Source: Synechococcus sp. (GTDB taxonomy: Bacteria > Cyanobacteriota > Cyanobacteriia > PCC-6307 > Cyanobiaceae). From it: a stretch of 64,000 nucleotides of DNA. The position numbers and the translations under genes are program-made. Below, piece after piece: positions 18,999-42,652 of this stretch. The stretch covers positions 1,720,203-1,784,202 of the forward strand of contig JBJBEO010000001.1 in the NCBI GenBank assembly GCA_047284725.1, written 5' to 3'. The notes under the pieces are model-generated. The model was given only the letters and a program-made list of their open reading frames with translations. It did no database searches and was not told the origin of the DNA. Positions within the stretch are counted from its first letter, which is position 1; each line of letters opens with the position of its first letter.

Positions 18999-20504
18999 TC
19001 AGGCCGATCCATCGGCGGCAAGCCAGGCCTCCACACACCCTTCTGCGGCGGTGACCTGGTTGAGGTCCTCCATCAACACGATGGGAATGCGCCGTTCCCG
19101 GGCCTTTCTCATCCTTGTGGTGTCAAGACTGAGGCTGGTGGAAAGGAGGAAATCGGGCGGATTTTGTCTGGTGAGACGCTCGCGTTTCGCCAGACCGAGG
19201 CGTTCGGCATGGGCCACTGCCCGCAGGATCGGCGTGTCGGTCTGCATTGAGCGGGGTCCGGTGGGGACGAAGCTCAGTCCCTTCTGCAGGGGAAGCGTGC
19301 TTTGTGTCCAGGATGGTTCCGACTCCAGCGCGAGCATGGCCCGGGTCCAGACCTGAGCCGGGGGCTTCGCTGACTGCAGGCGCGGCGCCGACACCGCCGC
19401 CGAAGACGGTTGAAGATGGGCCATTCCCTTGATCAGGGCCTGAGCCAAGGGGAGGACATCGCCGAGAGCCGTGTGGGCCAAACGAGGATCAAAGCCAACA
19501 CCGTGGAAGGAGCAGAGGTGCTGCAATTTCTTGCTGTTCCCATGCGCGGGGTCACCGCCAAAGCCGCGCAGGGTGCAGATGCCAACACCGAGATCCACCT
19601 CCTGCTCGGAATGGTTCCGGAAGTGGCGCTCGAGGATGGGGAAGTCGTAGCGAAGGTTGTGGGCCACCAGCACATGCTGATCAAGCTTGGCCGCTAACTG
19701 AGCGGCAATATCGGCAAAGGCCGGGGCCTGAACAACATCGCGATTGCCGATCTGGTGAATGGCGGTGACGGCTTTGGGAATGGTGCAGCCGGGATTGAGC
19801 AAGGTTTCCCAGGTCTCCGTGATCCGGCCGCTGGGGTCGAGACACACCAGACCGATTTCAACGATGGAGCAGGTGGATGGATCCCGGCCTGTGGTTTCCA
19901 GGTCAAACACAGCGAAACCCTTGGCACCCTTCGGCAACAACAGCGGCAGCGGTTGCGCAACCTTGGCCACCGCTGGCGTCCGCACCTGAACCGATTGGGC
20001 GCCAGCCACGCGCTTGACGTTCTTTGAAACGCGGCGCTCGGCCTTGAGGGGCAGATTGGTCTCAATCCAGCGCCTGATCTCAGCGGGGGACTCCAGGATC
20101 GTTTGCGGAGTTGCCTCCAGGAGTTGCACGCGCTCCAGGCCGCTCACGAGGAATTTTTTGGTGAAGGCAACATCGGGCTCTCGAGCGGTGACGGCGCGCA
20201 GGCGCCCCTCCTCCAGCACCCGGCTATAGAGCACCACCTCCCGTTCGGAGCAAGACCCGTTGGCCTTCCGGTAGGTCACCCGTGCACGAACCTTTCCCTG
20301 CGGCGGGGTTGCAGGCGCGGCGGCGGGCTCTGGAACGTTGGCGGCAGGCGAAGCCGGGGAGCTGGGTGCTGGCGGCGTTGGTCGCTGCGAGGAGACGGGC
20401 TCGGTGTGGGCCTGCTTCCCCTTGAGTGCAGCTTTAAGGGCCAGCGCGATCACGCCGATCACAACGACCAGAGCGATCAGAGCAAGCACGGTGATCCACC
20501 CCAT
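18999..20504 (-). CDS. Membrane-anchored DEDDh 3'-5' exonuclease with WYL-like and BRCT-like domains
   Basis: N-terminal TM; VTYRKANGSCSEREV (WYL-like); VFDLETTG, VAHNLRYD, HTALGD (DEDDh); DFLL...RMRKARERRIPIV (BRCT-like). Confidence 0.8.
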   Translation of the reverse strand: MGWITVLALIALVVVIGVIALALKAALKGKQAHTEPVSSQRPTPPAPSSPASPAANVPEPAAAPATPPQGKVRARVTYRKANGSCSEREVVLYSRVLEEGRLRAVTAREPDVAFTKKFLVSGLERVQLLEATPQTILESPAEIRRWIETNLPLKAERRVSKNVKRVAGAQSVQVRTPAVAKVAQPLPLLLPKGAKGFAVFDLETTGRDPSTCSIVEIGLVCLDPSGRITETWETLLNPGCTIPKAVTAIHQIGNRDVVQAPAFADIAAQLAAKLDQHVLVAHNLRYDFPILERHFRNHSEQEVDLGVGICTLRGFGGDPAHGNSKKLQHLCSFHGVGFDPRLAHTALGDVLPLAQALIKGMAHLQPSSAAVSAPRLQSAKPPAQVWTRAMLALESEPSWTQSTLPLQKGLSFVPTGPRSMQTDTPILRAVAHAERLGLAKRERLTRQNPPDFLLSTSLSLDTTRMRKARERRIPIVLMEDLNQVTAAEGCVEAWLAADGSA

Positions 20505-20737
20505 CACGATTCCTCAATAACGCTGGCTGCGCTCAGCGTATGAATCATTCAGACCGCCGTCAGCCGGAGGTTTTCAAGCCAGGCAAGGGGTCGACGCATC
20601 AGCCATCACAGCCCACTGCGACCAGTGACCCCACACAGCGACTGGAGGGCCTGGCTGCTGCAGAGGCGCGCTCTTCAGCTGGAACCCGACTGAGGGTGCG
20701 TGCACAATCTTGAGCACCTTGGGTAGACCGAAGAGAC

Positions 20738-24646: not shown

Positions 24647-25141
24647 ATGCACTTCCGCCTGATCACACCCAGCCAGCTGTCGCTGTTCAGCATCAGCCCA
24701 GTGATCGGGGCCTGGTGGGAGGAGCTGCAGGCGCAGAAGCTGTTTGACGGCAGCAAGCCAGCAGTGAGTGAGCTGGATCAGCAGCTGTTTGCTGACGGCC
24801 TGCGCCACGAGCAGGTGCTGCTCACCAAGCTGGAGAAGGCAGGCCACAGCATTGCCCGACTGCCCGGCAAACAAACCGACGCCGACTACACCGCAACCCG
24901 CCAGGCGATGGCTCAAGGGGTGGAGTTCGTCCACCAGGCCTCGCTCTGCAATGAGGAGATGCGCGGCAGTGCCGACTTGCTCAGGCCCAACCGTTTGAAC
25001 GTGACGATCAGCCGGGCTCAAAGCCTCTCGATCGTTGTGGGCTCAACAGGCCTGGCCAGCGGCGTTGCTAACACGGTGGCGGAGGCCGAGCAGATCAATC
25101 GGTTGTGCCGCGTTATGAAAGATGGGGGGCCGATGCCATGA
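24647..25141 (+). pseudogene. Internally deleted TM0106-family nuclease/SF1 helicase
   Basis: TM0106-like N-terminus (ITPSQL, GLRHE, HQASL...RGSADLL) joined in frame to helicase motif VI (NRLNVTISRAQ...VVGS). Confidence 0.75.
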
Positions 25142-26199
25142 CGCTCTGGCTGATCCGGGCGGGTTCCCATGGGGAACACGAACAGAAGTTTCTCGATGAA
25201 GGCCGTGTGTACGTCTGTTGGGACGGGCTTGATGTTGATCTCAGCAGCTTGAGTGAGCGGCAGAGCCTGATTGATCAGCTCGCCACGCGGTTTCCCGATG
25301 AGAAACCGAAGGCCTGGATGAACTGGTCATCGCAGATCTGGCCCTTCGCCCATGGGATGCAACCCGGCGACTGGGTGGTGATGCCATCGAAGCTGCAATC
25401 AGGGATTTACTTCGGAGAACTACAAAGCGACTACCACTACGAAGCCAGTGGCCCCGATCCCTACTTCCATTGGCGCTCGATCAACTGGTTCAGTGGCCTT
25501 GTGCCCCGAAGCACCTTCCCTCAAGACCTGCTGTATTCCTTCGGGGCGTTCATGACGATCTGCAGGATTCAGCGCAATGACGCAGAAGCGAGAACGAAAG
25601 CGATTGCATCTGTTGGCTGGAAGCCCGAGACCTTGGCGTCAGCAATCGCCGGATCACCAACATTCACAGCAACCACTAATGACTCGGCCACTGACGCTGA
25701 TGAAGGGAGCAACGTCGACCTAGAAGAACTGGCCGGCGATCAAATTGAGCGGCTGATCCAAGCCAAGTTCAAAGGCCACCGTTTAGCCGTGCTGGTGGAA
25801 GCCATCCTTCAAGCCGAGGGCTACACCACCTACCGCAGCCCTGAAGGGCCGGATGGCGGAGCCGACATCTTGGCCGCCCATGGCGAACTGGGGTTTGGCA
25901 ATCCCTCCATCTGCGTGGAGGTGAAATCCGGAGACACCCCTGCTGATCGGCCCATGGTGGACAAATTGATCGGGGCCGGGCAGAAATTCAGTGCCCAAAC
26001 CTGTTTGTTCGTGAGCTGGGCTGGCTTCCGCAGCAACGTGCAAAAGGAATTGGCTCGGGACTTCTTCAAGGTGCGCCTCTGGAGCCGGAAGGAATTGCTC
26101 GAGAAGCTGTTTCGCTATTACGACACCTTCCCAGAAGACATCCGGCTCGCTCTTCCCCTGAAGAAAGTCTGGATGGTGGCGGGTGATGCAGAGGAATGA
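25138..26199 (+). CDS. Mrr-family restriction endonuclease with N-terminal EVE/PUA-like region
   Basis: WLIRAG..GEHE; GPDGGADI; VEVKSG. Confidence 0.85.
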   Translation: MTLWLIRAGSHGEHEQKFLDEGRVYVCWDGLDVDLSSLSERQSLIDQLATRFPDEKPKAWMNWSSQIWPFAHGMQPGDWVVMPSKLQSGIYFGELQSDYHYEASGPDPYFHWRSINWFSGLVPRSTFPQDLLYSFGAFMTICRIQRNDAEARTKAIASVGWKPETLASAIAGSPTFTATTNDSATDADEGSNVDLEELAGDQIERLIQAKFKGHRLAVLVEAILQAEGYTTYRSPEGPDGGADILAAHGELGFGNPSICVEVKSGDTPADRPMVDKLIGAGQKFSAQTCLFVSWAGFRSNVQKELARDFFKVRLWSRKELLEKLFRYYDTFPEDIRLALPLKKVWMVAGDAEE

Positions 26200-26435
26200 T
26201 TTGTCCCTCAGTTGAGAGAAGCCCAAAGCGCTCGATCTCCCTCATTCCAGGGATGCCAGCTGCCAAAGAAACGCAGAAAATGAACCCATCGGCCTAACGG
26301 CCCCAACGCCAGCCATGCCCTTAAAAGCCTCCTGCCAACAAACCTGCCTCGTAATCCGCAGCCGCGTTGGAGCCATGGCAGTGGCATGCGCGGCTCAAGC
26401 CACACGCTCATTCAGGGGATGGAGGGAGCCCTGAG

Positions 26436-29400
26436 ATGGACAGCAACTTCACTCATATCGCCGAATACGACAAAACTCTCTTCCGCTTAAGCAGCAATGC
26501 GGAGCGCTATTTCCCCGGCGACCCCAACACGGCGCTGATCAAGCTTCGGCAATTTGGTGAGCTGTTGGCCCAGCAAGTGGCTTCACGCTTTGGGCTCTAC
26601 ACGGGCAGCGAGGAAACCCAACTCGAGCTGTTGCGCCGTTTGGAGAGCAATGGCGATCTAGAACGCGATGTGGCCGAGCTGTTCCACAACCTGCGTAAGG
26701 CAGGTAATGCCGCCACCCATCGCCTCGAAGGCGACCACAGCACGGCACTGCAAAGCCTCAAGGTTGCTTGGCAACTCAGCCTTTGGTTTCACCGCACCTT
26801 CGGCCGAGACCCGAATTACCGCAGTGGCCCTTTTCAGCCCCCACAGCCTCCTGAGGCACAGCCATCGTCAGGGGATGAAGCACTCAGGCAAGAACTGAAA
26901 GCCCTGAAGCAGGGCTACGAACAAGCGCAAGCCAATGAAGCGGCCCTGATTGAGGCACTGCAAAAGCAAGCCCAGGAGCTGACTGCATCCTTGAGCCTGC
27001 AGCAGGAGTGGGAAAACCTCGCAGAAGAAAGCGAAGCCGAAAAAGCCCAACTCGCTGAGAGCCTGTCTGCCCTGCAGATTGCGGCGAGCCAACAACCACC
27101 GATTGCTCGCAAGCAGCTCAAGCAGGCCGCCAAACAGGCCACGAGCCTCATCCAGCTCGACGAGGCTGCCACCCGAAAGCTCATCGATGCGCAACTGCGT
27201 GATGCCGGTTGGGAGTGCGACACCAAGCTGCTCACTTATGCCAAGGGCACCAGGCCAGAAGCCAACTGCAACAAGGCGATTGCTGAATGGCCCTGCAAAG
27301 GGGGCTATGCGGACTACGTGCTGTTTTTGGGGCTCACCCCAATCGCCGCCGTTGAGGCCAAACGAGCCAACAAAGATGTGGCGGGAGTGCTCCCGCAAGC
27401 CGAGCGCTACTGCGAGACCTATGTGCCCGATGACCAAGGCAACGCGGCAGCCACCGCCGACATGGGCGGACCCTTTCCAATTCCTTTTGCCTTCTCCTCC
27501 AATGGGCGCCCCTATCTGCCGCAGTTAAAAACCAAGAGCGGCATTTGGTTTCGCGACACACGCAAAGACACCAACCTCCCTAAACCTCTGGATGGCTGGT
27601 ACAGCCCAGAAGGCCTCAAACAACTGGCCCGCCAAGACAGCCAACAAGCCCATGCGCAGCTGAAACGGGAAACCTTCAACTACGGCTTCCCGATGCGCCC
27701 CTATCAACGCCAAGCGATCGAAAGCACGGAAGCTGCGATCGAAGCCGGCAAGCAGCAAGTGCTGTTGGCCATGGCAACGGGCACTGGCAAAACCAAAACC
27801 TGCATTGCCCTGATTTACCGCCTGCTCAAAACCAATCGCTTCAGGCGGGTGTTGTTCTTGGTGGATCGCTCTGAGCTGGGCAAGCAGGCTGCCGACGCGT
27901 TCAAAGAAACGCGCATGGAAAGCCTGCAACACTTCGCCGACATCTACGGCATCAAGGAGCTGAAAGAGAAAGAGGTGGAAAGTGATACGCGCGTGCACAT
28001 CGCGACGGTGCAAGCGATGGTGCAGCGGTTGATGCTGGGCCACGACGAAGAAAAGCCCAGCGTCGACACCTATGACCTAATCGTGATCGACGAGTGCCAC
28101 CGCGGTTACCTGCTGGATAGGGAGCTCAGTGAACGGGAATTGGGCTTCCGCGATTTCAATGACTACGTCTCCAAATACCGCCGTGTCATCGAGTACTTCG
28201 ATGCTGTGAGAGTGGGACTTACGGCAACGCCAGCACTCCACACGGTCGACATTTTTGGTGAGCCAGCCTTCGTTTACAGCTACCGAGAGGCTGTAGTCGA
28301 TGGGTTCTTGGTTGACCACGAACCACCGACCCTGATCAAAACCGACCTCTCCAGCGACGGGATTCATTTCGCTGCTGGTGATGAGGTGAAGGTGTTTGAT
28401 CCGAGCTCCACTGGGGTGGATCGCTTCAACACCCCTGACGCCCTCGACTTCGAAGTGGAGAGCTTCAACCGCAAGGTGATCACCGAGCCATTCAACCGTG
28501 CCGTCTGCCAGTTTTTGGCAACCGAGTTGGACCCGCAGTCACCACAGAAAACCCTGATTTTCTGTGCGACCGATGCCCATGCCGACATGGTGGTGACGCT
28601 CTTGAAAGAAGCGCTTGAGGAGCAGTACGGCAGCGTCTCCAACGACGCGGTGGCCAAGATCACAGGAGCGAGCGACAAACCTGCTGATCTGATTCGCCAC
28701 TACAAGAACGAAGCCTTCCCCAACATCGCCGTCACGGTCGATCTGCTGAGTACAGGCGTTGATGTGCCGGCAATCTGCAACATCGTGTTCCTGCGGCGGA
28801 TGAACAGCCGCATCCTTTACGACCAAATGATCGGCCGCGGCACCCGGCTGTGCGACGCGATCAACAAGACCCACTTCCGCATTTTTGATGCCGTGGGCAT
28901 CTACGAAGCACTCAAAGATTTCAGCGACATGAAGCCGGTGGTGGCGGACCCGAAGATCAGCATCAGCCAGCTGCTGGAGGAGTTCAGCCAAGAGCATGAA
29001 CCCAGCACCTTGGAGCTGATCCGCGATCAGCTGGTGGCCAAGGTTCGCCGCAAGGTCCGCAGGCTCAGCGAAGACCAAGGCGATCAGGTGCAGCAAGTGA
29101 CAGGGGTGCAGCCACTGGATTTCGTGGGGCGGCTGCTGTCGTTACCTGTGGAAGAGGCCAGCCGTTGGGTGCAACGCATGCCACGCCTGGCCGAGGTGCT
29201 GGATGCACCCACGGGCCATGGCAGTAATCCCCAGGTGATCTCCGACCATCCCGATCACTTGCGCTCCACAGAGCACGGCTACGGCAAGGGTCAAAAGCCG
29301 GAGGACTACCTCGAAGCCTTCACGGCGTTCATCAAGCAGGGCGGTAATGAACTTCCAGCGCTCAATCTGGTGCTGCAAAAACCCTGGGAACTCACCCGCT

Positions 29401-29804
29401 CCGACTTGAAAGAACTGCGGATTGCCCTCGATGCCGAGGGCTACAACGAAGCAAGCCTGCGCACGGCCTGGCGTGACACCACCAACCAAGAGCTGGTGGC
29501 GTCGATCATGGGGCACATCCGCCGAGCAGCCTTCGGTGATGCCCTCGTTCCTTATTCAGAGCGGGTGGACAAGGCTTTGCTGCGCATCTTGGCCTCACGC
29601 AGCTGGACCAGTCCGCAACGGCAATGGCTGCAACGGATCGCCAGCCAGACCAAGTCGATCACGATCGTGGATCGAGCGGCCATCGACGATCAGGGCTTGG
29701 TGTTTCGAAAAGAAGGGGGCGGTTGGCCCAGGCTGAACAAGGTGTTCAATGAGGAGCTTGGCGAGGTGCTGGAGCTGTTCCAGCGCGAGGTCTGGGCGGC
29801 CTAA
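26436..29804 (+). CDS. hsdR: Type I RM restriction subunit
   Basis: ADYVLF...VEAK nuclease; MATGTGKT; DECHRG; LTATP; QMIGRGTR. Confidence 0.95.
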   Translation: MDSNFTHIAEYDKTLFRLSSNAERYFPGDPNTALIKLRQFGELLAQQVASRFGLYTGSEETQLELLRRLESNGDLERDVAELFHNLRKAGNAATHRLEGDHSTALQSLKVAWQLSLWFHRTFGRDPNYRSGPFQPPQPPEAQPSSGDEALRQELKALKQGYEQAQANEAALIEALQKQAQELTASLSLQQEWENLAEESEAEKAQLAESLSALQIAASQQPPIARKQLKQAAKQATSLIQLDEAATRKLIDAQLRDAGWECDTKLLTYAKGTRPEANCNKAIAEWPCKGGYADYVLFLGLTPIAAVEAKRANKDVAGVLPQAERYCETYVPDDQGNAAATADMGGPFPIPFAFSSNGRPYLPQLKTKSGIWFRDTRKDTNLPKPLDGWYSPEGLKQLARQDSQQAHAQLKRETFNYGFPMRPYQRQAIESTEAAIEAGKQQVLLAMATGTGKTKTCIALIYRLLKTNRFRRVLFLVDRSELGKQAADAFKETRMESLQHFADIYGIKELKEKEVESDTRVHIATVQAMVQRLMLGHDEEKPSVDTYDLIVIDECHRGYLLDRELSERELGFRDFNDYVSKYRRVIEYFDAVRVGLTATPALHTVDIFGEPAFVYSYREAVVDGFLVDHEPPTLIKTDLSSDGIHFAAGDEVKVFDPSSTGVDRFNTPDALDFEVESFNRKVITEPFNRAVCQFLATELDPQSPQKTLIFCATDAHADMVVTLLKEALEEQYGSVSNDAVAKITGASDKPADLIRHYKNEAFPNIAVTVDLLSTGVDVPAICNIVFLRRMNSRILYDQMIGRGTRLCDAINKTHFRIFDAVGIYEALKDFSDMKPVVADPKISISQLLEEFSQEHEPSTLELIRDQLVAKVRRKVRRLSEDQGDQVQQVTGVQPLDFVGRLLSLPVEEASRWVQRMPRLAEVLDAPTGHGSNPQVISDHPDHLRSTEHGYGKGQKPEDYLEAFTAFIKQGGNELPALNLVLQKPWELTRSDLKELRIALDAEGYNEASLRTAWRDTTNQELVASIMGHIRRAAFGDALVPYSERVDKALLRILASRSWTSPQRQWLQRIASQTKSITIVDRAAIDDQGLVFRKEGGGWPRLNKVFNEELGEVLELFQREVWAA

Positions 29805-29834
29805 TCGATTTGAAGGAGAGATGAGCAAGCAACC

Positions 29835-31274
29835 ATGAGCGGCCAATCCACCACTGACATCGTTTCCAAGCTGTGGAACCTCTGCAACGTCCTGAAGGAC
29901 GACGGGGTCACCTATCACCAGTACGTCTCTGAGCTGACGTATCTGCTGTTTTTGAAGATGGCCAAGGAAACCGGCACGGAGACCGGGATTCCTGAGGAGT
30001 GGCGTTGGGATGAGCTTGAGCGGCTCAAGGGCCTCAAGCAGCTGGAGCACTACAAGCTGCTGCTGCTGGAACTTGGCAGCTCAGAGAGCGGCGCTTCGTC
30101 GTTGGTGCAGGAGATCTATGCCAACGCCAACTCGTTCGTGAAAAAGCCCGTCACGCTGAACAAGCTGGTGGAGGAAATCGACAAGCTCGATTGGTACAGC
30201 GCCAAAGAAGAGGGGTTGGGTGACCTCTACGAGGGGCTGCTGCAAAAGAACGCAGAAGAGAAGAAGTCAGGTGCAGGGCAGTACTTCACCCCACGGCCAC
30301 TGATCGATTCGATGGTGGCGGTGATGCAGCCCCAACTGGGGGATGTGATCCAAGACCCCGCTGCTGGCACCGGTGGTTTTTTGATTGCCGCGCGCAGCTG
30401 GATCGCTGAGCACCAAGACATCTATTCCCTGACTGAGGCCGAGCAACAACGCTTCTACCGGCGCACCTTCTACGGAATGGAGCACGTGCAAGACACGCAC
30501 CGCTTGGCGTTGATGAACCTGATGCTGCATGGGCTTGATTCCGCCAGCGGCGAAGGGGGCATCCGCTACGGCGACACGATGAGCAGTGATGGCGAAGGGC
30601 TGCCCAGGGCCAGCTTGATGCTGACCAACCCACCGTTTGGAACGAAAAAAGGGGGTGGACTGCCCAGCCGCACCGACTTCACTTTCCCCACCGCCAACAA
30701 GCAGTTCTGCTTCCTGCAGCACATCTACCGGGGCCTTCAACCGGGCGGACGCGCTGCTGTGGTGCTGCCTGACAACGTGTTGTTTGAAGGCAACGTGGGC
30801 CGGCAGATCAGGGAAGACCTGATGGCCAAGTGTGATCTGCACACGATCCTGCGACTGCCCACGGGCATCTTCTACGCGCAGGGCGTAAAGACCAATGTGC
30901 TGTTCTTCACCCGAGGCCAACACGATCAAGGCAACACCGATCAGGTGTGGGTCTATGACCTGCGGGCCAACATGCCTAAGTTCGGCAAGCGCACCCCACT
31001 CACTCGTAGCCACTTCAGCGAGTTTGAAGCGGCCTACGGCTCTGATCCCTACGGCAAGGCAGAGCGAACAGCAACCGGACCAGAAGGGCGTTGGCAATGC
31101 TTCAGCCGCGATGAGATTGCTGCCCGCGACTTCAGCTTGGATCTGGCTTGGCTTCGGGATGAGTCAGGGGATGACGCAGAGGATCTACCGGAGCCTGAAG
31201 TTCTCGCCCAAGAGGCAATGGATGAGCTTGAGAGCGCATTGAGTGATTTAAGAGAGCTAATCAACCAGCTATGA
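29835..31274 (+). CDS. hsdM: Type I RM N6-adenine methyltransferase
   Basis: GQYFTPR, DPAAGTGGFL, TNPPFG. Confidence 0.95.
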   Translation: MSGQSTTDIVSKLWNLCNVLKDDGVTYHQYVSELTYLLFLKMAKETGTETGIPEEWRWDELERLKGLKQLEHYKLLLLELGSSESGASSLVQEIYANANSFVKKPVTLNKLVEEIDKLDWYSAKEEGLGDLYEGLLQKNAEEKKSGAGQYFTPRPLIDSMVAVMQPQLGDVIQDPAAGTGGFLIAARSWIAEHQDIYSLTEAEQQRFYRRTFYGMEHVQDTHRLALMNLMLHGLDSASGEGGIRYGDTMSSDGEGLPRASLMLTNPPFGTKKGGGLPSRTDFTFPTANKQFCFLQHIYRGLQPGGRAAVVLPDNVLFEGNVGRQIREDLMAKCDLHTILRLPTGIFYAQGVKTNVLFFTRGQHDQGNTDQVWVYDLRANMPKFGKRTPLTRSHFSEFEAAYGSDPYGKAERTATGPEGRWQCFSRDEIAARDFSLDLAWLRDESGDDAEDLPEPEVLAQEAMDELESALSDLRELINQL

Positions 31275-32878
31275 ATACACTTGAGGACACTAGCAACCAG
31301 GAAAGAACATCACTACCAGGCGGGTGGGAAACAGTCCCACTTTTAGAGCTTGGAGACCTAATCAGAGGTGTTACATACAAGAAACAGGATGCATCAATAG
31401 AGCCATTCACTGACTCAATTCCAATCCTGCGAGCGAACAACATCCAGAATGGCAACTTAGACCAAGAAGAGCTTGTCCACATCCCCCGGAACCTAGTTTT
31501 AGATATCCAATTGATAACCAAAGGGGATATCCTCATAGCAACATCTAGCGGAAGCATAAGCGTCGTAGGCAAAGCCGCACGGGCCCAAAACGATACGAAT
31601 ACAGCATTTGGTGCATTTTGCGGCTTGATAAGACCAAGACCTGAAATCAGCTCGAGATACCTGGGCCACTACTTCGGCTCGCAAGGCTATCGCCAGAGGG
31701 CTTCGGCGATGGCAAGGGGCGTCAATATAAACAATCTCAAGAAGGCACATTTTGAGTCACTTAGCGTCAATCTCCCTCCACTCAACGAGCAACGCCGCAT
31801 CGCCGACAAGCTCGACACCACCCTTACCGCAGTTGAAGCCTGCAAGCAAAAGCTCAACAACGCCGCCGAAACGATCCAGCGATTCCGCCAATCCGTACTG
31901 GCAGCAGCCGTTTCTGGCGGGCTAACGAAGAATCAAAATCAGTTCACCGAGAAACAGATTTCAGATGTGTGCACTGTAGTCAGAGGTGCATCACCAAGGC
32001 CAGCAGGCGACCCAAGATATTTCACAGATGACCCAGAAATACCTTGGATCACAGTAGGAGAACTAACAAAGGATGAAGAGAAATACCTAGAAAGAACAAA
32101 GACATTTTTAACAGAAGAAGGAAAGGAAAGGAGCCGATTAATCAATGAGAAAACATTGCTACTGACCAATAGCGGAGCCACACTTGGAGTGCCAAAGATT
32201 ACATTGATATCAGGCTGCATCAATGACGGCTCAGTAGCCCTTGAAGGCCTAGACGAACCACTTAAATCATATCTATACTATGTACTCAAATCCAAGACGC
32301 AAGAACTAAGGAATATCAAGCAAGGCGCAGCTCAGCCAAATCTGAACACAACTATCGTAAAAAATATCCGCTTTTCATGCCCAGACGACAAGGAAGGCCA
32401 GACAGAAGCAATCAACAAAATCGAAACGCTTTTTGAGTTGGCCGACTTGATTGAAAAGCAAATTGTTCAAGCCAAATCACAAATTGATGCAATAAGGAAT
32501 TCGGTTTTAGACAAAGCCTTCCGCGGCGAGCTTGTTCCCCAAGACCCAAACGATGAGCCTGCCTCAGTACTGCTGGAACGAATCAAAGCCCTGCGCGAAA
32601 CCGAAGCAGCAGCCAAAAAAACAGCCAAGCGGGGTAGGAAGAAGAAGGCTGCAGCCGCTCAGCTCGTCATTCCAGAAGGAATTGCCGACAACCACCTCGC
32701 CAAGGTGCTTGAAGAGTGCGGAGCCTTAAGCGAGCGAGCCTTGCTTGCTGCTTCGGAGCTTGAGCCTGGGGTGTTTCAGCTGCAGCTCAGCAAGGAGCTC
32801 GGTGCCGGTGGGCTCAAGCAAGTTGATGTTGATGGCGAAGCTGCCTATGCGGATGCAAGCTGGGAGGAGGAGGGATGA
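31271..32878 (+). CDS. hsdS: Type I RM specificity subunit with C-terminal extension
   Basis: LPPLNEQRRIADKL; AFRGELVPQDPNDEPASVLLERI; AT-rich TRDs. Confidence 0.93.
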   Translation: MNTLEDTSNQERTSLPGGWETVPLLELGDLIRGVTYKKQDASIEPFTDSIPILRANNIQNGNLDQEELVHIPRNLVLDIQLITKGDILIATSSGSISVVGKAARAQNDTNTAFGAFCGLIRPRPEISSRYLGHYFGSQGYRQRASAMARGVNINNLKKAHFESLSVNLPPLNEQRRIADKLDTTLTAVEACKQKLNNAAETIQRFRQSVLAAAVSGGLTKNQNQFTEKQISDVCTVVRGASPRPAGDPRYFTDDPEIPWITVGELTKDEEKYLERTKTFLTEEGKERSRLINEKTLLLTNSGATLGVPKITLISGCINDGSVALEGLDEPLKSYLYYVLKSKTQELRNIKQGAAQPNLNTTIVKNIRFSCPDDKEGQTEAINKIETLFELADLIEKQIVQAKSQIDAIRNSVLDKAFRGELVPQDPNDEPASVLLERIKALRETEAAAKKTAKRGRKKKAAAAQLVIPEGIADNHLAKVLEECGALSERALLAASELEPGVFQLQLSKELGAGGLKQVDVDGEAAYADASWEEEG

Positions 32879-33816
32879 GCGACCTCAACGCAGTGCCTGA
32901 GATCCCCAAGTTCCATCAATTCATGCGGCCCCTACTCGAAGTGCTGCAAGAACAAGGAGAGCTGTCACGCAACGACGCCATCGAGGCTGTTGTGCGAAAA
33001 GTGGGCCTAAGTGAAGAACAGATGGCTGTTAGCCAAGAAAGCAATGGGAAAAGCCTGGCTCGCGGACGAATCGGCTGGGCTTCCTCATATCTCAGAGTTG
33101 CTGGTGCTCTCATAGGTCCGAAGCGCGCTTACTTCGCCTTAGGGCCTAACGCCGGGGCACTCTTGGCACTTGGGCGGCCAATCACACGCGCAGATCTAAC
33201 TGGGTTTAAGGAGTGGCAAGAACATCAGGCCGCCAAACAGGCCAAGAGTCAATCGACACCTGACAGCACGAGCGACATCAACACAGAAGACAGCACTCCT
33301 GAAGATCTGATCGAAGCAGGCGTCAAGCAGATCAAGGAGCAGTTGGTCTCTGACCTACTGGATCAGATGAAAGAGATGGATCCTCACGACTTTGAAGGGC
33401 TTGTCTTGGACGTACTCGCTGCCATGGGCTACGGCGGTGGTTCCAGGCAAGCCATGCAAGGGGTGCCGCGCGGACCTGACGGTGGCATCGACGGCAAGAT
33501 CAACGAAGACAAGCTCGGCCTGGATCAGATTTATATGCAGGCGAAGCGCTATTCGGAGAACTCAGTCTCCAGCGAGAAGGTGCAGGCCTTCGTTGGAGCC
33601 ATGACCTCAGGCGGTTGCCGAAAAGGAGTCTTCGTCACCACAAGCAAATTCACTGCTGATGCCGTCCGCTTCGCCAACAGCATTCGCGATCCACGTCTTG
33701 TTCTCGTCGATGGAGACAAGCTTGCCAGCTTGATGATTCAGCACGGGGTTGGCATCCAAAACAAAGAAATCAAAATTCCCAAGATTGATCTCGACTTCTT
33801 TAGTGGTGGGGATTAG
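32875..33816 (+). CDS. mrr: Mrr restriction endonuclease
   Basis: IPKFHQFMRPLLE..RIGWASSYL (Mrr_N); DGGIDG, QAKRY, VFVTTS. Confidence 0.92.
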   Translation: MSDLNAVPEIPKFHQFMRPLLEVLQEQGELSRNDAIEAVVRKVGLSEEQMAVSQESNGKSLARGRIGWASSYLRVAGALIGPKRAYFALGPNAGALLALGRPITRADLTGFKEWQEHQAAKQAKSQSTPDSTSDINTEDSTPEDLIEAGVKQIKEQLVSDLLDQMKEMDPHDFEGLVLDVLAAMGYGGGSRQAMQGVPRGPDGGIDGKINEDKLGLDQIYMQAKRYSENSVSSEKVQAFVGAMTSGGCRKGVFVTTSKFTADAVRFANSIRDPRLVLVDGDKLASLMIQHGVGIQNKEIKIPKIDLDFFSGGD

Positions 33817-33822
33817 TGAAAA

Positions 33823-34095
33823 TCACTCCCCCGCCTGAATCTCCCGCACCACCTCATCGATCTGATCGCTCAGATCGATTTCTCCGTTCTGCCCCGCCAG
33901 CTCCGCAAAACGGCGCCCCTACGGCAACAACCGGCTCTGCGCTGATCCCACGGCTGCATTAAAGCTCTTGTTCAAGCGAGTGATGTTGTTGCCGATGACG
34001 TTGAACTTATCGATTAAGGTTGAGAAGCGCTTGTGCAGCTCCACCGTCTGCGCCTGAAATTCATCGATGTTTTTGGCGATCTCCACCTGATCGAT
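33823..34095 (-). pseudogene. rmuC: RmuC C-terminal remnant
   Basis: ELHKRF...FNAAVGSAQSRLLP*GRRFAEL with in-frame TAG at 33919-33921; 5' part absent. Confidence 0.7.
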
Positions 34096-34415
34096 CGGCA
34101 TGGTGAAATCGACTGGGATCATGAAGCGCTCAGAAGTGGCGATCGGAACCACACAATCAATAGATAGATGCGATCAAAACAGCAACAATCACCTACAAGA
34201 AATGGTTCAACTTGATCTCGAGACGGAGTTCTTAGCCAAGCCAAAATACAAAGTGCTTAGAAGCTTCTCCAGACCGCATAACCATCCATGGGAGAAGTGG
34301 CAATCCGCCGGAATCCTTGCTAAGAATGGAGTGCTGCTTTAGAGGCAGCAAGCCATTGGCAGCTTATGCAGCAAAAGATCATCTTGCCGCAGCTTCTGCA
34401 GACCGCCTAAATACT

Positions 34416-36788
34416 GTTAGATTCTCCTCAGGGACCTCACATGGAATCAAAAGATTTACACGGATTTGCCTCAGATAGACCAATTACAAAAGTAGAAGAT
34501 GACTTGTTAGGTCGTTCAGGTTTTTCCACCGACTTGGCAGATGCGATGGCAAGTTGGCATGGAAACGATAGTTTGGTAGTAGCCTTACATGGTGACTGGG
34601 GGGCAGGAAAATCTTCAATTAAAAATATGGCTCTATCTCGGCTAGAGGCAATTACTGAAGACAAACCGGATATCATTCAGTTTTCTCCATGGGAGTGGGC
34701 TGCGCAAGATAAAATAACCGCTTCCTTTTTTCAAGAAATATCAAAATCAATAGGTCGAAAAGATAAAAGCAAATCAGGGAAAAAATTAGCGGCCACCCTT
34801 AAAAAGTATGGTCGTTATCTAAATACGGGCGAGACGGTAGTATCAGGTCTTTCTAGGGCACTCCCTACACTGTTCATTCTTGCAACACTTGTTGGAGTTG
34901 GCGGAAACTTTTCCAACGAAGCATGGGTCAACAACGCTAGCACCCTTATGCTACTTGTTTTAGCTTGTTTGGCTGCAATATTGAAGTGGGGGAAAGGTTT
35001 TCTTGAGAAGTTAAGTGGTAATGTTGAAGCAACTGCAAAGGAAAAAGAGCAGAGTTTGAGCGATATAAGACAGGAGTTAACGGCTTTGTTGCTAAAGCGA
35101 AAAGCCCCCTTGATCGTAGTAATGGATGACTTAGATAGGCTGACATCTTCTCAATTGAGGATGGTTTTTCAGCTTATAAAAGCAAATTTAGAATTCCCGA
35201 ATGTAGTATTCCTTCTTCTATTTCAACGAGGTCTAGTAGAAGATAAAATGAACGATGGGATGCAACTGGGTCGGGATTATTTAGAAAAAATAATCCAAGT
35301 GCCTTTTGATATTCCTCAGATAGAAACGACACGACTTCACAGCCTATTATTCAACAAGCTAGACAAAATCATCGAACAAGATAAATCAGCGACAGATATG
35401 TTTGATTCTGGCCGGTGGGGAAACATATTTCACGGCTCCCTGAACGCATACTTTGACAACTTGAGAAGCGTCTATAGGTATACCTCAACTTTATCATTCC
35501 ACTTTACATTACTTAAAGGTAAAAGTGCTTTTGAGGTCAATCCTGTAGATCTAATTGCGATTGAGTGTCTAAGAGTATTTGAGCCAGATGTTTATAAGGA
35601 AATCGCACGTTCGAAAGAAATATTCACCAAAAATGGATCGGATAGATATGGGAGAAGTGAGGATTCTACAGCTGCTTTAATCAATGGCATCTTGGATAAA
35701 GCAACTCCTGATAAACGAGAGGCTGTAAAAGAAATGGTGGAGCAACTATTTCCAACAATTGAATGGGCCCTAGGTGGGACTCAATATTCTGGAGATTTTG
35801 CCAGCACATGGTTAAGAGAGATGCGTGTTTGCCACCCCTCTAATTTTGACAAATACTTCCAATTTTCCATTCCAAGCGGCGAACTTTCAAACTCAGACTT
35901 ACAGGAAATGCTTAGTCTAACTGCCGATTCTGATAGATTTTCTTCATTTATCTTGTCGCTTAAAGAACGTGGCATTCTAAAAAATGCTCTTTCACAGTTT
36001 GAATCATTTACAGATGAAATTCCTTTAGAAAATGGGCAGGCTTACATTAAGGGGATTTTAGATATTGGTGACTGTTTCGATCATGAATCAACAGGTTTTA
36101 CGATGTTCAGCTCTAATACGCATGCTGTTAGGCTTGTTGTCTGGTTCCTACGACGTATTGATGACATTGAAGAAAGAGGGAAGCTGTTGCTAGAATGCTT
36201 CAAAGCATCGAATGGGATATCTATTGTCGAACATATACTGTTAGGTGATGAAATTCGGAGAGAAAAGTCGGATTCGGACCAAATTCTACGGGATGGAGAA
36301 TTTGAACAGCTTCAAGCAGAATTTGTACAAAAATTGGATAAAATGTCTAAAAATTCGCCCTCTGACCTACTTTCTCATGAGCACTTGGTATCCTTTTTGT
36401 ATAGGTGGAAGCGCTGGGGTGATGAGAACAAAGTTATAGATTGGTTGAAACTTCAGACCCAAACTACCGAAGGCTGTATAGCTTTATTGAAAAAATTTGC
36501 AGGTAAATCATCTTCTCAGGCCATGAGTGATTACGTAGTAAAAATTACGACCTATATCAAACTTGAAAATATTGAAAACTTTCTAGAGATTGCACCAATC
36601 CAAGAAAAAATACGTAATCTTGACGAGACTAAGCTTGATTCCGAAGCACAAGAAGCATTGAAAGCTTTCCAAGATGCATTGCAAAAAAGAGCAAAAGGAA
36701 TTGCCAATGATTGGTAGTGAATCTAACAAGTTGCTGCACTCGGAAAAATTACTCGCTACGCTCCTAATTTTCCGGTGAGCAAGGCGTT
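34416..36788 (+). mobile_element. Isolated integron-type gene cassette
   Basis: Left core GTTAGAT (34416-34422) is the exact complement of inverse core ATCTAAC (36721-36727); single ORF; abrupt AT-rich composition between these points. Confidence 0.85.
34441..36717 (+). CDS. KAP-family P-loop NTPase
   Basis: DLLGR, GDWGAGKSS, FSPW, two TM helices, MDDLDRL, YLEKIIQVPF. Confidence 0.93.
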   Translation: MESKDLHGFASDRPITKVEDDLLGRSGFSTDLADAMASWHGNDSLVVALHGDWGAGKSSIKNMALSRLEAITEDKPDIIQFSPWEWAAQDKITASFFQEISKSIGRKDKSKSGKKLAATLKKYGRYLNTGETVVSGLSRALPTLFILATLVGVGGNFSNEAWVNNASTLMLLVLACLAAILKWGKGFLEKLSGNVEATAKEKEQSLSDIRQELTALLLKRKAPLIVVMDDLDRLTSSQLRMVFQLIKANLEFPNVVFLLLFQRGLVEDKMNDGMQLGRDYLEKIIQVPFDIPQIETTRLHSLLFNKLDKIIEQDKSATDMFDSGRWGNIFHGSLNAYFDNLRSVYRYTSTLSFHFTLLKGKSAFEVNPVDLIAIECLRVFEPDVYKEIARSKEIFTKNGSDRYGRSEDSTAALINGILDKATPDKREAVKEMVEQLFPTIEWALGGTQYSGDFASTWLREMRVCHPSNFDKYFQFSIPSGELSNSDLQEMLSLTADSDRFSSFILSLKERGILKNALSQFESFTDEIPLENGQAYIKGILDIGDCFDHESTGFTMFSSNTHAVRLVVWFLRRIDDIEERGKLLLECFKASNGISIVEHILLGDEIRREKSDSDQILRDGEFEQLQAEFVQKLDKMSKNSPSDLLSHEHLVSFLYRWKRWGDENKVIDWLKLQTQTTEGCIALLKKFAGKSSSQAMSDYVVKITTYIKLENIENFLEIAPIQEKIRNLDETKLDSEAQEALKAFQDALQKRAKGIANDW

Positions 36789-36792
36789 ACCG
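36721..36792 (+). mobile_element. attC: attC site
   Basis: ATCTAAC...TTGCTgCACtCGGAAAaATTA / TAATTTTCCGGTGAGCAA...GCGTTA: imperfect inverted repeat with unpaired extra bases, RYYYAAC...GTT ends, starting 3 bp after the KAP stop. Confidence 0.85.
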
Positions 36793-37722
36793 CAAACATT
36801 CCCGATGCAACTGTAGATACTGCTCCTGTAGCCGCGAAAATGGCTCAATAACATTGGCTGATGCTATCCCCCAACACTGCAACGCATCACCCGCAGCTTC
36901 GTGCTGCCAAATCAACTGACCATCAGGATCAAAACTGATCCAATGTCGATCGAATAATTTATCAACATGGGGAGACAGCAGCAATCCATTCGCGCCATCA
37001 AGGCGCTCCTGATGATCACAATCACGCCAGGGCTTGATGTGGCTGGCAATCAGGAATTCTTGCCTGGCCAAAGCCGTCACGCGACAAATCGGCTCCTGCT
37101 CAGCCACACGCTGCCGAAACAGGCCTTGCCCCATCCTCGCTTTCGTTAAGGCATCACGCTCGGTGGCGCTTGGAACCTGCTGCAGTTCCTGCACATCCTT
37201 CAACAGCGCATCAACAGAGGTTTGCTCTTCCGCCAGCACCAACAGATGCACTCTGATGGCGGGATCAGCATGGTCTTCGATCAACTGGATGAGGAGATGA
37301 CCCAACACCTCATCCAGCCCTGCGAGATACACCCCCTGATTGCCTCGCCCTGAGGTTGGTCTGATCGGGCTATGGCGCTCCGGCAAAAGGGGTTGAATCA
37401 AATCAAAGTGATCCAACGGCACCAAAGGCTGTTGCAGCGGTTGCCAAGCCACCCGTACCAGCCAGCCGTCATCTCCCCAGTACTCAACGGTGCTGCCAAA
37501 CTCAGGTGGCTTTGGCGCCGTCTCAGCCGCCGATTCCACCACACCAATCCGGCCGATCTTGGCGTAGGCATCACTGAACACCACATCACCCACCTGGCAG
37601 CGCGCCAGGTTGTCGTAGCTGACGTTCTTAGCGCCATTGGCATTCTGTTTAGGCGGCTAGATGGTGCCCCCTTCCGTTTCTTGCCGAACGGTCTGCTTTT
37701 GATTCACCCACCAGAACGCCAC
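36787..37722 (-). pseudogene. EVE/PUA-like-HNH (type IV-like) endonuclease with nonsense codon
   Basis: MAFWWVNQKQT...GGTI*PPKQN (TAG at 37657-37659), then in frame ARMGQGLFR, ASHIKPW, NGLLLSPHVDKLFD. Confidence 0.8.
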
Positions 37723-37775
37723 GACCAGACCAGGCCTCTCGATTCACCCTTAGCAAGCTGCCTGAGAGACCACAC

Positions 37776-38777
37776 CTAGTAATTCTGTTTGCCTGGAATC
37801 ACCCCCCTCACACCACCCCGCGGGTCAGGCGTGTCGCCGTTGCGCCTCGGGATCAGATGCCAGTGGGCATGCATCACCGTCTGCCCGGCCGACGCACCAC
37901 TATTGAGGCCGATGTTGAAGCCGCTGATGGAGGCATCCGCCAGCTCAAGCTCCTGCAGTCGCTGCTTCAGCAATGCAGCGACTGCATTCCACTCGGGCTG
38001 ATGAAGGTCCATTCCATCCGCCACATGCCGGCAGGGAATCACCAGGCTGTGGCCTTCAGTGACGGGATAGGCATCGGCGATGCAGACCGCCAGTTCGTTC
38101 CTGAGCAGAACCCGATCTGAAGACTGCAGATCACAGAAGAGGCATCCCTCCTGCCTGTGGCCATAGCTCTGCAGCACCCCGCGGAAGTCGGTGCTGTCGC
38201 TGTCCCTCTTGCCGGCGTTGCAACGGAAGCAGAGCGCCTGAAAGTTGGAGATGTCATCGGAACCAGCAAGGTTCTTCGGGATGATGTGATCCACCTCCAG
38301 CGCCGCCTGGTGCTCATGGGCACCGCAGCATTCACAGCGGCCCTTCGCGCGGGTGAACACCCGGTAGCGGATCGATCCGCTGATGGCCGTGCGATGGCGT
38401 GAGCGATGCGCGAAGACCTCATCACCGCGCTTCAGGCGAAAGGCATCGAGCTTCTGCCGGCAAAGCTGCAGCAGTGCATCCCGCTCCTGATCGCTGAGGT
38501 CGTCGGCCCCGACCAGGCTTTAGACGCCTCCGGCATGGGTCGTGATGCCGTTGGAGGTCAGCACCCGCCCCACCATCCGTTTCACCCGTTCGGAGTAGTA
38601 CTCGATCTGGGAGCTGTCCTCGCCGAGGATCCTGCGCGCGATGTCGTCTGCGGGTGCAGGGCTGCGTCTGCCGAGCAGCTCCATCAACATCAACGGCTGG
38701 TAGATGTGCGACATGCACATCCGCTGATTGATGTAAGCGGCGAGATACTCAAAGGCAGTTGATCGTGCAGGCTCCAT
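37776..38777 (-). pseudogene. HNH-HIT fusion protein with nonsense codon
   Basis: MSHIYQPLML N-domain; in-frame TAA at 38520-38522; CECCG..VDHIIP..NFQALCFRCN; HAHWHLIPR. Confidence 0.8.
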
Positions 38778-41767: not shown

Positions 41768-42652
41768 ATGGCGTCCAACCCTGATCCAATCAACGGCCCC
41801 TGCATCCTCGGCATCGATGCGGCCTGGACGGCCCATCAGCCCAGCGGCATCGCCCTGGTGCAGCGCACCCAGGCCGGCTGGAGCTGTCAGGCCGTCGCCC
41901 CCAGCTATGAAGCGTTCATCAACCAGGCCTCAGGCCAGGCCTGGGATCCCCAGCAGAAGGCCACAGGCAGCAGACCCAACCCAGCAGCACTGCTGCAGGC
42001 CTCTCAACAGATCGCCAATGCGGAGGTCGGCTGCGTGTCGGTCGACATGCCCCTGGCCACCACACCGATCACCAGCCGACGGGCGGCTGACACCGACATC
42101 TCCAGGCGCTTCGGGACCCGGGGCTGCGCGGTGCACAGCCCCTCAGCCGAACGCCCCGGCGCCTTGGCCGATCGGCTGCGCGCCGACTTCGCCGCCCTCG
42201 GCGTCCCCCTGCACACCAAAGGCAGCGATCAGACAACCCCGGCTCTGATCGAGTGCTATCCCCATGTCGCCCTGCTGGCCTTGCTCAACTGCTCCTACCG
42301 CGTGCCCTACAAGGTGAGCCGCTCAGCCCAGTACTGGAGAGACGAGCAGCTGACGCGCCGTGAGCGGATCGCACGCTTGCTCAAACAATTCCGCGCCATC
42401 AAAGACGGCCTCGATGCACACATCCGCGGCATTCCAGAGTTCATCCCCGAGCCCTCCGAGGTGACGACACTGGCGTCGCTCAAGTCGGTGGAAGACAGAC
42501 TCGATGCCCTGATCTGCGCCTGGGTCGGCATCGAGCATCTCGAAGGGAGAACCGTTGGCCTGGGGGATCACACAGCCGCGATCTGGGTGCCGCAGATCCT
42601 GATCACCCCTGACCAACCCCTAACAGCCGGTGGCATCAGCTCCTCGCCTTGA
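41768..42652 (+). CDS. DUF429 family (predicted RNase H-fold nuclease)
   Basis: LGIDAAW, VDMPL, IECYPH, DRLDALICA. Confidence 0.85.
   Translation: MASNPDPINGPCILGIDAAWTAHQPSGIALVQRTQAGWSCQAVAPSYEAFINQASGQAWDPQQKATGSRPNPAALLQASQQIANAEVGCVSVDMPLATTPITSRRAADTDISRRFGTRGCAVHSPSAERPGALADRLRADFAALGVPLHTKGSDQTTPALIECYPHVALLALLNCSYRVPYKVSRSAQYWRDEQLTRRERIARLLKQFRAIKDGLDAHIRGIPEFIPEPSEVTTLASLKSVEDRLDALICAWVGIEHLEGRTVGLGDHTAAIWVPQILITPDQPLTAGGISSSP

Follow-up and report, generated by a model that had tools for sequence, protein, structure and literature searches.

A lone integron gene cassette encoding a PifA-family KAP NTPase in the defense island of a marine Synechococcus-like genome

We analyzed a 64-kb window of the 2.58-Mb genome of a marine Synechococcus-like cyanobacterium and found that positions 34417 to 36786 (all coordinates are window positions) constitute one integron gene cassette, inserted precisely in a defense island. 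The cassette holds a single open reading frame (ORF) for a KAP-family P-loop NTPase of the PifA family, followed by an attC recombination site, and it adjoins DNA of picocyanobacterial type. An earlier note, made from the letters of this DNA alone, had read the region as an integron cassette, and that reading stands, since the ORF and its attC recur together in many unrelated contexts and the similarity ends at both G/TT points (in junction sequences, a slash marks the crossover). Taken as a whole, the evidence makes it likely that a proteobacterial cassette was inserted here by recombination between its attC and a non-classical genomic site.

At the left junction, G34416 derives from the target and the following TTAGAT is the cassette-borne portion of the R' core (GTTRRRY in the circular form). 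The heptamer GTTAGAT at 34416 to 34422 is unique in the window, and its G lies 25 nucleotides (nt) 5' of the ATG at 34441. At the other end, ATCTAAC (36721 to 36727), the exact reverse complement of GTTAGAT, begins 3 nt past the TAG stop codon of the ORF, and the cassette closes at GGCG/TTA, between G36786 and T36787, where TTA (36787 to 36789) is the TAA stop codon of a convergent HNH_2 ORF (36787 to 37593, minus strand). The earlier note had described each of these landmarks (G/TTAGAT 25 bp before the ATG, one AT-rich ORF, an attC whose first bases complement the left junction, and an end at GCG/TTA on the HNH stop codon), and the sequence confirms them. The note had also seen composition shift at both ends, which holds for the right boundary and less cleanly for the left. 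The guanine-plus-cytosine (GC) content is 0.396 from 34417 to 36787, 0.585 in the 5 kb rightward, and 0.609 in the full window, so that the right boundary is sharp, while a GC content of 0.46 is already reached in the 263 nt left of the junction (34153 to 34415). Composition alone therefore does not define the left end; homology does.

This homology comes from copies of the cassette in other bacteria. A contig scan that took one genome per species yielded 20 loci (numbered with the prefix L), to which we compared window positions 33000 to 38500 by blastn. The match spanned 34416 to 36788 in L012 (Marinicella) and 34415 to 36782 in L005, began at 34416 in L003 and at 34415 in L008 (5' half of a Marinomonas copy), and ended at 36789 in both L004 (3' half of the Marinomonas copy) and L019 (Desulfobulbaceae). 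Outside those points, no part of the query matched any of the 20 loci. Similarity thus begins and stops at the two G/TT crossover points. The ORF of Marinomonas profundimaris is identical to that of the window at 2141 of 2277 aligned sites (94.0% DNA identity), its attC differs from the window attC at three positions, and its flanks part from the window right past the GTTA shared at both junctions (TTG/TTAGAT... and ...GGTG/TTAAAAT).

The same cassette is bounded at G/TT in many different contexts. Among the 18 loci with the gene's 5' end, 7 show the sequence GTTAGATTC 5' of the gene (L001, L003, L007, L008, L012, L021, and L022) and 4 more show near variants, and an attC of the same family lies directly 3' of the stop codon in 7 of the 20 loci holding the 3' end (L012, L019, L004, L005, L011, L002, and L021; E ≤ 1e-4 with the covariance model R1, described below). 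An attC lying upstream ends with the left GTT in L008, L012, and L005. This is not so in L001, L003, L007, and L022, showing that the cassette has also landed alone at other GTT sites. In addition, 85%-identical copies with the same left junction are present on two conjugative plasmids, Shewanella putrefaciens pSA70-2 and Vibrio nigripulchritudo pVNTG1, so conjugative elements can carry the cassette. No intI gene is annotated within 15 kb of either plasmid locus. Among the ORFs of 270 to 480 amino acids (aa) within 10 kb in the 20 loci, no integrase family was matched at E ≤ 1e-20 by 89 of 95 (the other 6, excluded, are pieces of the KAP gene), a screen that shorter or weaker candidates would escape.

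The attC site is 72 nt long, in keeping with the approximately 70 bp first estimated and within the 57- to 141-nt range of such sites. Its R'' core, ATCTAAC (36721 to 36727), fits RYYYAAC at 4 of 4 RYYY positions and at AAC, and the R' core of the circular form, GTTAGAT, is its exact complement. Between the cores are a spacer (AAG), a 5' arm (36731 to 36751), a loop (36752 to 36764), a 3' arm (36765 to 36782), and a second spacer (GGC). The right core in the genome consists of G36786 followed by TTACCG, which is target DNA, so that the genomic R' is the expected hybrid. By folding, the hairpin at 36731 to 36782 forms on either strand (-12.7 and -13.3 kcal/mol; z approximately -2.3), with an 18-bp stem from which G36736, T36740, and A36744 of the 5' arm are extruded; these are the unpaired extra bases that had been noticed in the arms from the outset. 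The central spacers, AAGTT and AAGGC, have 5 nt each, of which two positions can pair (TT with AA) and three are left unpaired, compared with the typical 5 to 6 unpaired nt.

The arrangement of the extrahelical bases can be compared with rules set out by Nivina et al. (2016; PMC5027507). As described there, such bases number two or three per site (G16, T/A20, and T24 in VCR2 and attCoxa2), they are on the 5'-AAC-3' arm in the top strand and on the facing arm in the bottom strand, the one that is recombined, and 6 bp must lie between the outermost of them for efficient recombination by IntI1. The window attC agrees with all three of these rules: in the ORF-sense strand its three bulges, 4 nt apart, are on the arm that bears AAC, and 3 + 3 bp separate them. 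The orientation of the cassette is therefore canonical, with the ORF-sense strand as the top strand.

We found that this structure is conserved among copies of the cassette. In an alignment of eight family members with a 21-pair structure, 88.7% of cells were paired, compared to 32 to 46% (maximum, 45.6%) in slid controls in which the 3' partners were displaced by 1 to 3 columns. Seven of the 21 pairs were altered on both sides (for example, TTGCT with AGCAA versus GCGCT with AGCGC, and CAC with GTG versus CTG with CAG), and the bulged G, T, and A and their neighbors were invariant (columns T17, G18, T22, C23, G24, G25, and A26). A geometric scanner for attC sites (AAC, 4 to 6 nt, 3 bp, bulge, 3 bp, optional bulge, 3 bp, bulge, and 4 bp, mirrored before GTT) gave the site 13 of 13 Watson-Crick pairs and 4 of 4 RYYY matches, and it was the sole site in the window to score 12 or more; in 200 shuffled windows, 5 had a hit of at least 12 and none reached 13. 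Covariation, invariant bulges in the canonical arm with the canonical spacing, and cores that fit RYYYAAC and GTTRRRY together support the view that the attC is real, as originally proposed.

We also looked for further integron components. The covariance model R1, used in place of the IntegronFinder attC model, was built from the cassette's own family, including the window site, so the 93.3 bits that it gives to that site are high by construction; it found no other site in the window and one further attC in L012. No second attC was found in the 64-kb window by R1 or by the scanner, both of which have limited reach for unrelated attC types (the scanner recovered only 2 of 13 candidate sites in an unrelated array, L017), and no attC-like fold ends at the left GTT. 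Searches of window ORFs against Pfam (76 ORFs; no Phage_integrase) and NCBIfam (29 ORFs) revealed no integrase or recombinase family, meaning none in the 34 kb upstream or the 27 kb downstream. The earlier statement that the window has neither intI nor a second attC is upheld to that extent. The window contains no tRNA or tmRNA genes, and no Rfam family was found at 33500 to 37500. A looser heuristic, which combined RYYYAAC...GTTRRRY with fold energy, was rejected: at 61% GC the window gave it dozens of false hits driven by base composition, and the true site escaped it, the genomic R' being a hybrid. It did bring out the 13-site array of L017 and the attCs that lie upstream in L008 and L012.

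The ORF, first identified as a KAP NTPase, matched Pfam KAP_NTPase (6.4e-40; 137.7 bits versus a cut-off of 20) and could be assigned more narrowly to the PifA family, since the PADLOC PifA profile aligned with it end to end (3.6e-85; residues 8 to 745 on profile positions 4 to 717 of 720). It has a Walker A motif, GDWGAGKSS (residues 51 to 59), and a Walker B motif, VVMDDLD (residues 226 to 232), and two hydrophobic segments between them, at approximately residues 133 to 151 and 161 to 188. These segments were taken from Kyte-Doolittle hydropathy (19-residue windows above 1.6 at residue 133 and at residues 161 to 170). Transmembrane segments inserted within the NTPase domain are reportedly part of the original description of KAP proteins. 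The protein departs from near-invariant columns of the family once (K625Q), which equals the median of 1 for 123 relatives; it thus looks intact, and we saw no gene decay. Its nearest relative (P0001) is 97% identical, and several of the 24 residue differences are grouped in the second hydrophobic segment.

For F-plasmid PifA, Maffei et al. (2021; PMC8594841) describe sensing of T7 proteins (Gp1.2, the capsid protein Gp10 also playing a part) and cell death via membrane depolarization, with a very narrow phage range. The cassette product, probably membrane inserted, would by the same token detect a phage protein and bring about abortive infection through collapse of the membrane potential. Enterobacterial plasmid matches, among which F-type PifA would fall, are all less than 60% identical to the window protein, and the listed one, from a Klebsiella plasmid, is 23% identical, so the PifA mechanism is an analogy here. 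We therefore treat the gene as a putative anti-phage gene, and one that may be expressed.

To place the gene, we scored 7,999 candidate proteins, 681 of which were relatives at E ≤ 0.001. Identity is 70% or higher throughout the best 120, and the 33 of these 120 that carry an organism name all belong to Pseudomonadota, Desulfobacterota, or Bdellovibrionota (Vibrio, Aeromonas, Pseudoalteromonas, Shewanella, Photobacterium, Idiomarina, Psychrobacter, Neptuniibacter, Vogesella, Undibacterium, Desulfotalea, and a Pseudobdellovibrionaceae metagenome-assembled genome [MAG]); no cyanobacterium is among the 33. In a tree of 44 rows, made with a quick IQ-TREE search with SH-aLRT support only, the window protein is sister to P0001 (SH-aLRT, 99) within an eight-row clade (97) that contains Marinomonas profundimaris, Vibrio breoganii, and Neptuniibacter and is nested among proteobacterial rows. 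The tree conflicts with taxonomy throughout, as expected of a mobile cassette. The GC content at third codon positions (GC3) of the gene is 0.335, compared with 0.30 to 0.37 in the donors, and a test for GC amelioration was not significant (24 AT-to-GC and 15 GC-to-AT changes on the window branch versus 8 and 12 on the Marinomonas branch; Fisher P = 0.17). The donor-like GC3 and the lack of significant drift to host composition fit a recent arrival. The proteobacterial relatives, the nesting in the tree, and the picocyanobacterial flanks show that the gene is foreign to its cyanobacterial host, as the earlier note had held; the check that the note had suggested, on the taxonomy and context of the best KAP hits, turned up non-cyanobacterial named hits and a cassette in varied contexts. 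The cassette comes from proteobacteria, and most likely from marine gammaproteobacteria.

The flanks are picocyanobacterial, and the locus is a defense island of a marine Synechococcus-like genome (Table 1). For the HNH_2 endonuclease whose stop codon overlaps the crossover site, the best 120 relatives include 5 with an organism name, every one of them from Cyanobium or Synechococcaceae. Its C terminus, ...YLQLHRECLR, is identical to those of the two closest full-length relatives (P0208 and P0210), so the insertion cost the gene nothing. The 90% cluster of HsdM, encoded upstream, includes Synechococcus sp. MIT S9452, and for a PhzF-like protein the best organism-named relative is that of Synechococcus sp. 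BIOS-U3-1 (63%). The window also contains 11 HIP1 sites compared to 2.95 expected, and host markers in the form of CAAD, DUF4278, and DUF3598 domains and cyanobacterial-type Mrp subunits. At the other end of the HNH_2 gene, the frame runs on upstream (37594 to 37722, minus strand) as VAFWWVNQKQ..., matching 311-aa relatives, and where ...GGYIWSPKQ... has its W there is instead an in-frame stop codon, at approximately 37657 to 37659. Either the gene is truncated at its N terminus, with 268 aa from GTG 37593, or it is a pseudogene.

Table 1. Features in and around the cassette (window positions)
Feature	Position	Strand	Description and evidence
Integron gene cassette	34417..36786	+	2370 bp; GC approximately 0.396; homology bounds, composition, 94.0% DNA identity to the Marinomonas profundimaris ORF
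Left junction G/TTAGAT	34416..34422	+	Sequence; onset of blastn similarity at 34415/34416 (L012, L003, L005, L008)
KAP-family P-loop NTPase ORF, pifA-like	34441..36717	+	758 aa; Pfam, PADLOC, motifs, hydropathy
attC	36721..36792	+	72 nt; folds, covariation, scanner 13 of 13, controls, model R1 93.3 bits (site included in the model)
Target gene, HNH_2 endonuclease	36787..37593	-	Pfam HNH_2; stop codon TAA at 36787 to 36789 is the TT(A) of the crossover site
HNH-HIT fusion gene, next on the right	37776..38360	-	Pfam HIT and HNH; 90% cluster with Synechococcus sp. RS9902 and A15-44
Left flank	34153..34415		263 nt, non-coding; GC 0.46
Upstream defense context	25105..33816	+	Mrr-cat/PDC-S02 protein, type I restriction-modification hsdR, hsdM, and hsdS, type IV Mrr; Pfam and PADLOC

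These data suggest the following route of insertion. A circular cassette, consisting of the pifA-like ORF and its attC, would be recombined by an integron integrase, which would act on the bottom strand of attC in its folded form and join it to a genomic site of the non-classical GWT type (attG), 5'-ACTG/TTACCG-3', overlapping the HNH stop codon in the defense island. Crossover between G and TT would then yield G/TTAGAT on the left and ...GGCG/TTACCG on the right, with the HNH stop codon preserved. The GTT of the reconstructed target, ACTG/TTACCG, fits the 5'-GWT-3' crossover consensus, and the original proposal of insertion at a secondary GWT-type site is thus in line with the published motif. 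Before insertion, the empty target would read ...AAATACTGTTACCGC... (also given as ...CCTAAATACTGTTACCGCAAAC...), and excision would leave a healed ACTGTTACCG site and a circle in which the cassette ends meet at GTTAGAT. Loot et al. (bioRxiv 10.1101/2022.09.11.507474) report that integrases insert cassettes at 5'-GWT-3' genomic sites at frequencies near canonical ones, that such inserts can be expressed and excised, and that 21,105 genomes contain 3400 isolated cassettes (SALINs). Since no integrase lies within the window, the enzyme would be encoded elsewhere in the genome or have been supplied transiently. It would most likely have acted in trans, presumably inside the cyanobacterium, for example, when transiently expressed from an incoming conjugative element that also brought single-stranded cassette DNA.

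Several observations weigh against this account. At the left flank, the GC content of 0.46 is below that of the 9 other intergenic gaps measured (0.49 to 0.70). An adjacent 77-aa ORF (33919 to 34152, minus strand) covers only positions 219 to 275 of the 291-position RmuC profile and is thus a gene fragment that ends where the low-GC 263 nt begin, which points to a site with a history of rearrangement (an older breakpoint at approximately 34152) and means that foreign DNA may reach beyond the left GTT. The earlier note had named foreign DNA beyond the two GTT sites as a finding that would speak against it; this point is not fully cleared on the left, where the 263 nt have odd composition and no detectable relative. 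From 33817 to 34440 there was no phage or plasmid match and no convincing ORF; the 263-nt flank itself matched none of the 20 loci and had no unusual fold (z approximately -1). At the attC and its target, the bulges in the bottom strand would read C, A, and T, which differ from the usual G ... T at the first base alone (PMC5027507), and the 5'-CRGM-3' motif at +6 to +9, described for IntI1 hotspots only, is absent, the window reading GCAA. No promoter-like site was found between 33777 and the ATG, in a scan that found 9 promoter-like sites in total compared to 6.4 expected. The search for intI covered 64 kb of the 2.58 Mb; integrons occur in Cyanobacteria (PMC4889954), and published intI trees include an intI of a marine "Synechococcus sp." (PMC3607928 and PMC3108266), so that action in trans from outside the genome is not established. 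Finally, the exact cassette protein (P0195; 34441 to 36714) is listed from NCBI only, compared with NCBI and Logan for 9 of 9 other window proteins looked up.

Some of these observations would be accounted for by a resident integron, that is, by an intI elsewhere in the genome that inserted the cassette or by a former array that has decayed to one cassette, and the records just cited and the small part of the genome in view favor it. We nevertheless regard it as unlikely, because the window has no integrase family among its ORFs, no second attC, and no attC-like fold at the left GTT, because the cassette adjoins an intact native gene end on its right, and because the attC is of the family that travels with the gene in proteobacteria and not that of a host-specific array. 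The composition and lack of relatives of the left flank, together with the rmuC truncation at 34152, would also be explained if the cassette had been inserted at a GTT in another organism or element and then moved here within a larger fragment (at least 34153 to 36786) by illegitimate or homologous recombination. This seems still less probable: the left flank is found in none of the 20 genome loci, and at the right junction stands a picocyanobacterial gene with its C terminus and stop codon unaltered, which argues that the G/TT crossover at 36786/36787 itself joined the cassette to cyanobacterial-type DNA.

The other two alternatives have little weight. DNA of a co-cultured heterotroph stitched into a Synechococcus contig would fit the NCBI-only listing of the KAP protein and the abrupt GC jump on the right, but an assembly chimera of this kind would not have its ends at the two points where an attC-bearing cassette recombines, rebuild the GTT target, and keep the flanking stop codon, and we judge it very improbable. 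That the hairpin is an ordinary terminator or a chance palindrome and its 7-nt match a coincidence might be suggested by the position of the site between two convergent ORFs and the modest fold z score (-2.3). However, no T run follows the stem, the terminator scan did not call it, no Rfam family matches it, its structure covaries across hosts with the gene, and homology stops at the GTTs; the blastn bounds and the covariation already refute this idea, and we give it practically no credence.

Insertion of a proteobacterial cassette by attC-attG recombination remains our preferred explanation, and it places the locus among the SALINs, as a single coding sequence is accompanied by an attC, with neither intI nor a further att site in the vicinity. 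Like the SALINs of Loot et al. (bioRxiv 10.1101/2022.09.11.507474), it has a GWT crossover and the orientation and junctions of a bottom-strand-type event. It differs in its host, a marine picocyanobacterium (the word "cyanobacteria" is absent from the main text of that preprint), in its lack of CRGM, and in that the event is deduced from the anatomy of the locus. CALINs (Cury et al. 2016; PMC4889954) likewise have attC sites without intI, and Marinicella (3 attC-like sites) and Marinomonas (2) have the same cassette in small groupings that resemble CALINs, but the single attC of the window falls below the two-site definition of a CALIN. As a single-gene defense candidate in cassette form, the locus also resembles the anti-phage cassettes of two preprints on BRiCs and on sedentary integrons as biobanks (bioRxiv 10.1101/2024.07.02.601719 and 10.1101/2024.07.02.601686), one of which describes a defense cassette outside integrons with a conserved attC and reads it as an attG insertion. 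The terms "PifA," "KAP," and "P-loop" are absent from the main texts of both preprints, and the window cassette, at 2.4 kb, is a candidate by sequence. With F-plasmid PifA, which acts in abortive infection against phage T7, the product shares a full-length profile match, the KAP domain, Walker motifs, hydrophobic segments between them, and, in some hosts, carriage on conjugative plasmids; the difference is that the window gene has been mobilized as an integron cassette and is not a plasmid backbone gene.

The SALIN class, the attC-attG reaction, and defense genes as cassettes are thus already in print. In the literature that we searched, no report of this cassette, or of any cassette in marine Synechococcus, turned up. 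The interest of the locus lies in its cross-phylum host, and it is a clear, though not unprecedented, case of cassette spread outside integrons. The locus bears on how marine picocyanobacterial islands are filled with foreign genes, and its scars can be read base by base: the cassette is from the pool of marine proteobacteria, the target is a GTT, and the attC is intact. The locus adds a PifA-family gene to the defense cargo known as cassettes and is a natural, excisable-looking substrate for work on the reversibility of the attC-attG reaction. If a resident intI is found, it will be just another SALIN. If there is none, integron machinery can act across phyla in hosts that keep no integrons, and defense genes would pass in this way between heterotrophs and phototrophs in shared, phage-rich water.

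We can, tentatively, go one step further. No integrase was found among the ORFs screened at the 20 loci or annotated at the plasmid loci, and for this reason the PifA-type cassette may be largely integron independent and free roaming, as it turns up alone at varied GTT sites in hosts from the Gamma- and Betaproteobacteria, Desulfobacterota, Chlorobiota, and, with this window, Cyanobacteria; in a picocyanobacterium without an intI of its own, the integrase would have been transient and in trans. We think this possible, though somewhat doubtful. If it is true, the most plausible source is a conjugative element from a co-occurring heterotroph, and the defense islands of picocyanobacteria would have an undescribed route by which they are stocked.

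Other features of the cassette copies and of the island were recorded along the way. The closest named copy of the gene, that of Marinomonas profundimaris D104, is divided between the ends of two contigs close to residue 328 (L008, 10001 to 11009; L004, 1 to 1326), and unrelated sequence flanks the break, pointing to an insertion or an assembly break inside the gene. On pVNTG1 (L022, 13448 to 18592), the copy lies between IS3-family and IS256-family transposases, its attC is cut off after CTCTAACAAGACC, and an anti-phage dCTP deaminase is annotated 2 kb upstream. Other defense genes that neighbor the cassette encode a Drt2 antiviral reverse transcriptase in a Chromatiaceae MAG (L014, 1007 to 2335, minus strand; 8e-174) and a BrxD-like ATPase in a Colwellia MAG (L001, 443 to 1759). 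In Oceanospirillales bacterium XeTr1 (L013, 16922 to 17809), a match to the CARB/PSE/RTG class A beta-lactamase family (1.3e-124, just under the curated cut-off) lies 4.7 kb downstream of a KAP homologue. A Flavobacteriales MAG (L017, 1693 to 21635) has at least 13 attC-like sites (CCCTAAC...GTTAGGG; approximately 82 nt) in a regular array around a 53%-identical KAP homologue and is a true cassette array in Bacteroidota.

Within the window, a second dip in GC content (0.41 to 0.50) occurs at 31150 to 32500, inside hsdS, a gene that is variable in type I systems, and no cassette-like sites bound it. PADLOC also called candidate systems at 18999 to 20507 (PDC-S48, a DEDDh exonuclease; minus strand), at 25105 to 26196 (PDC-S02, 6.8e-146; plus strand), and at 41768 to 42649 (PDC-S44, DUF429; plus strand), and the defense island may reach well past the restriction-modification genes.

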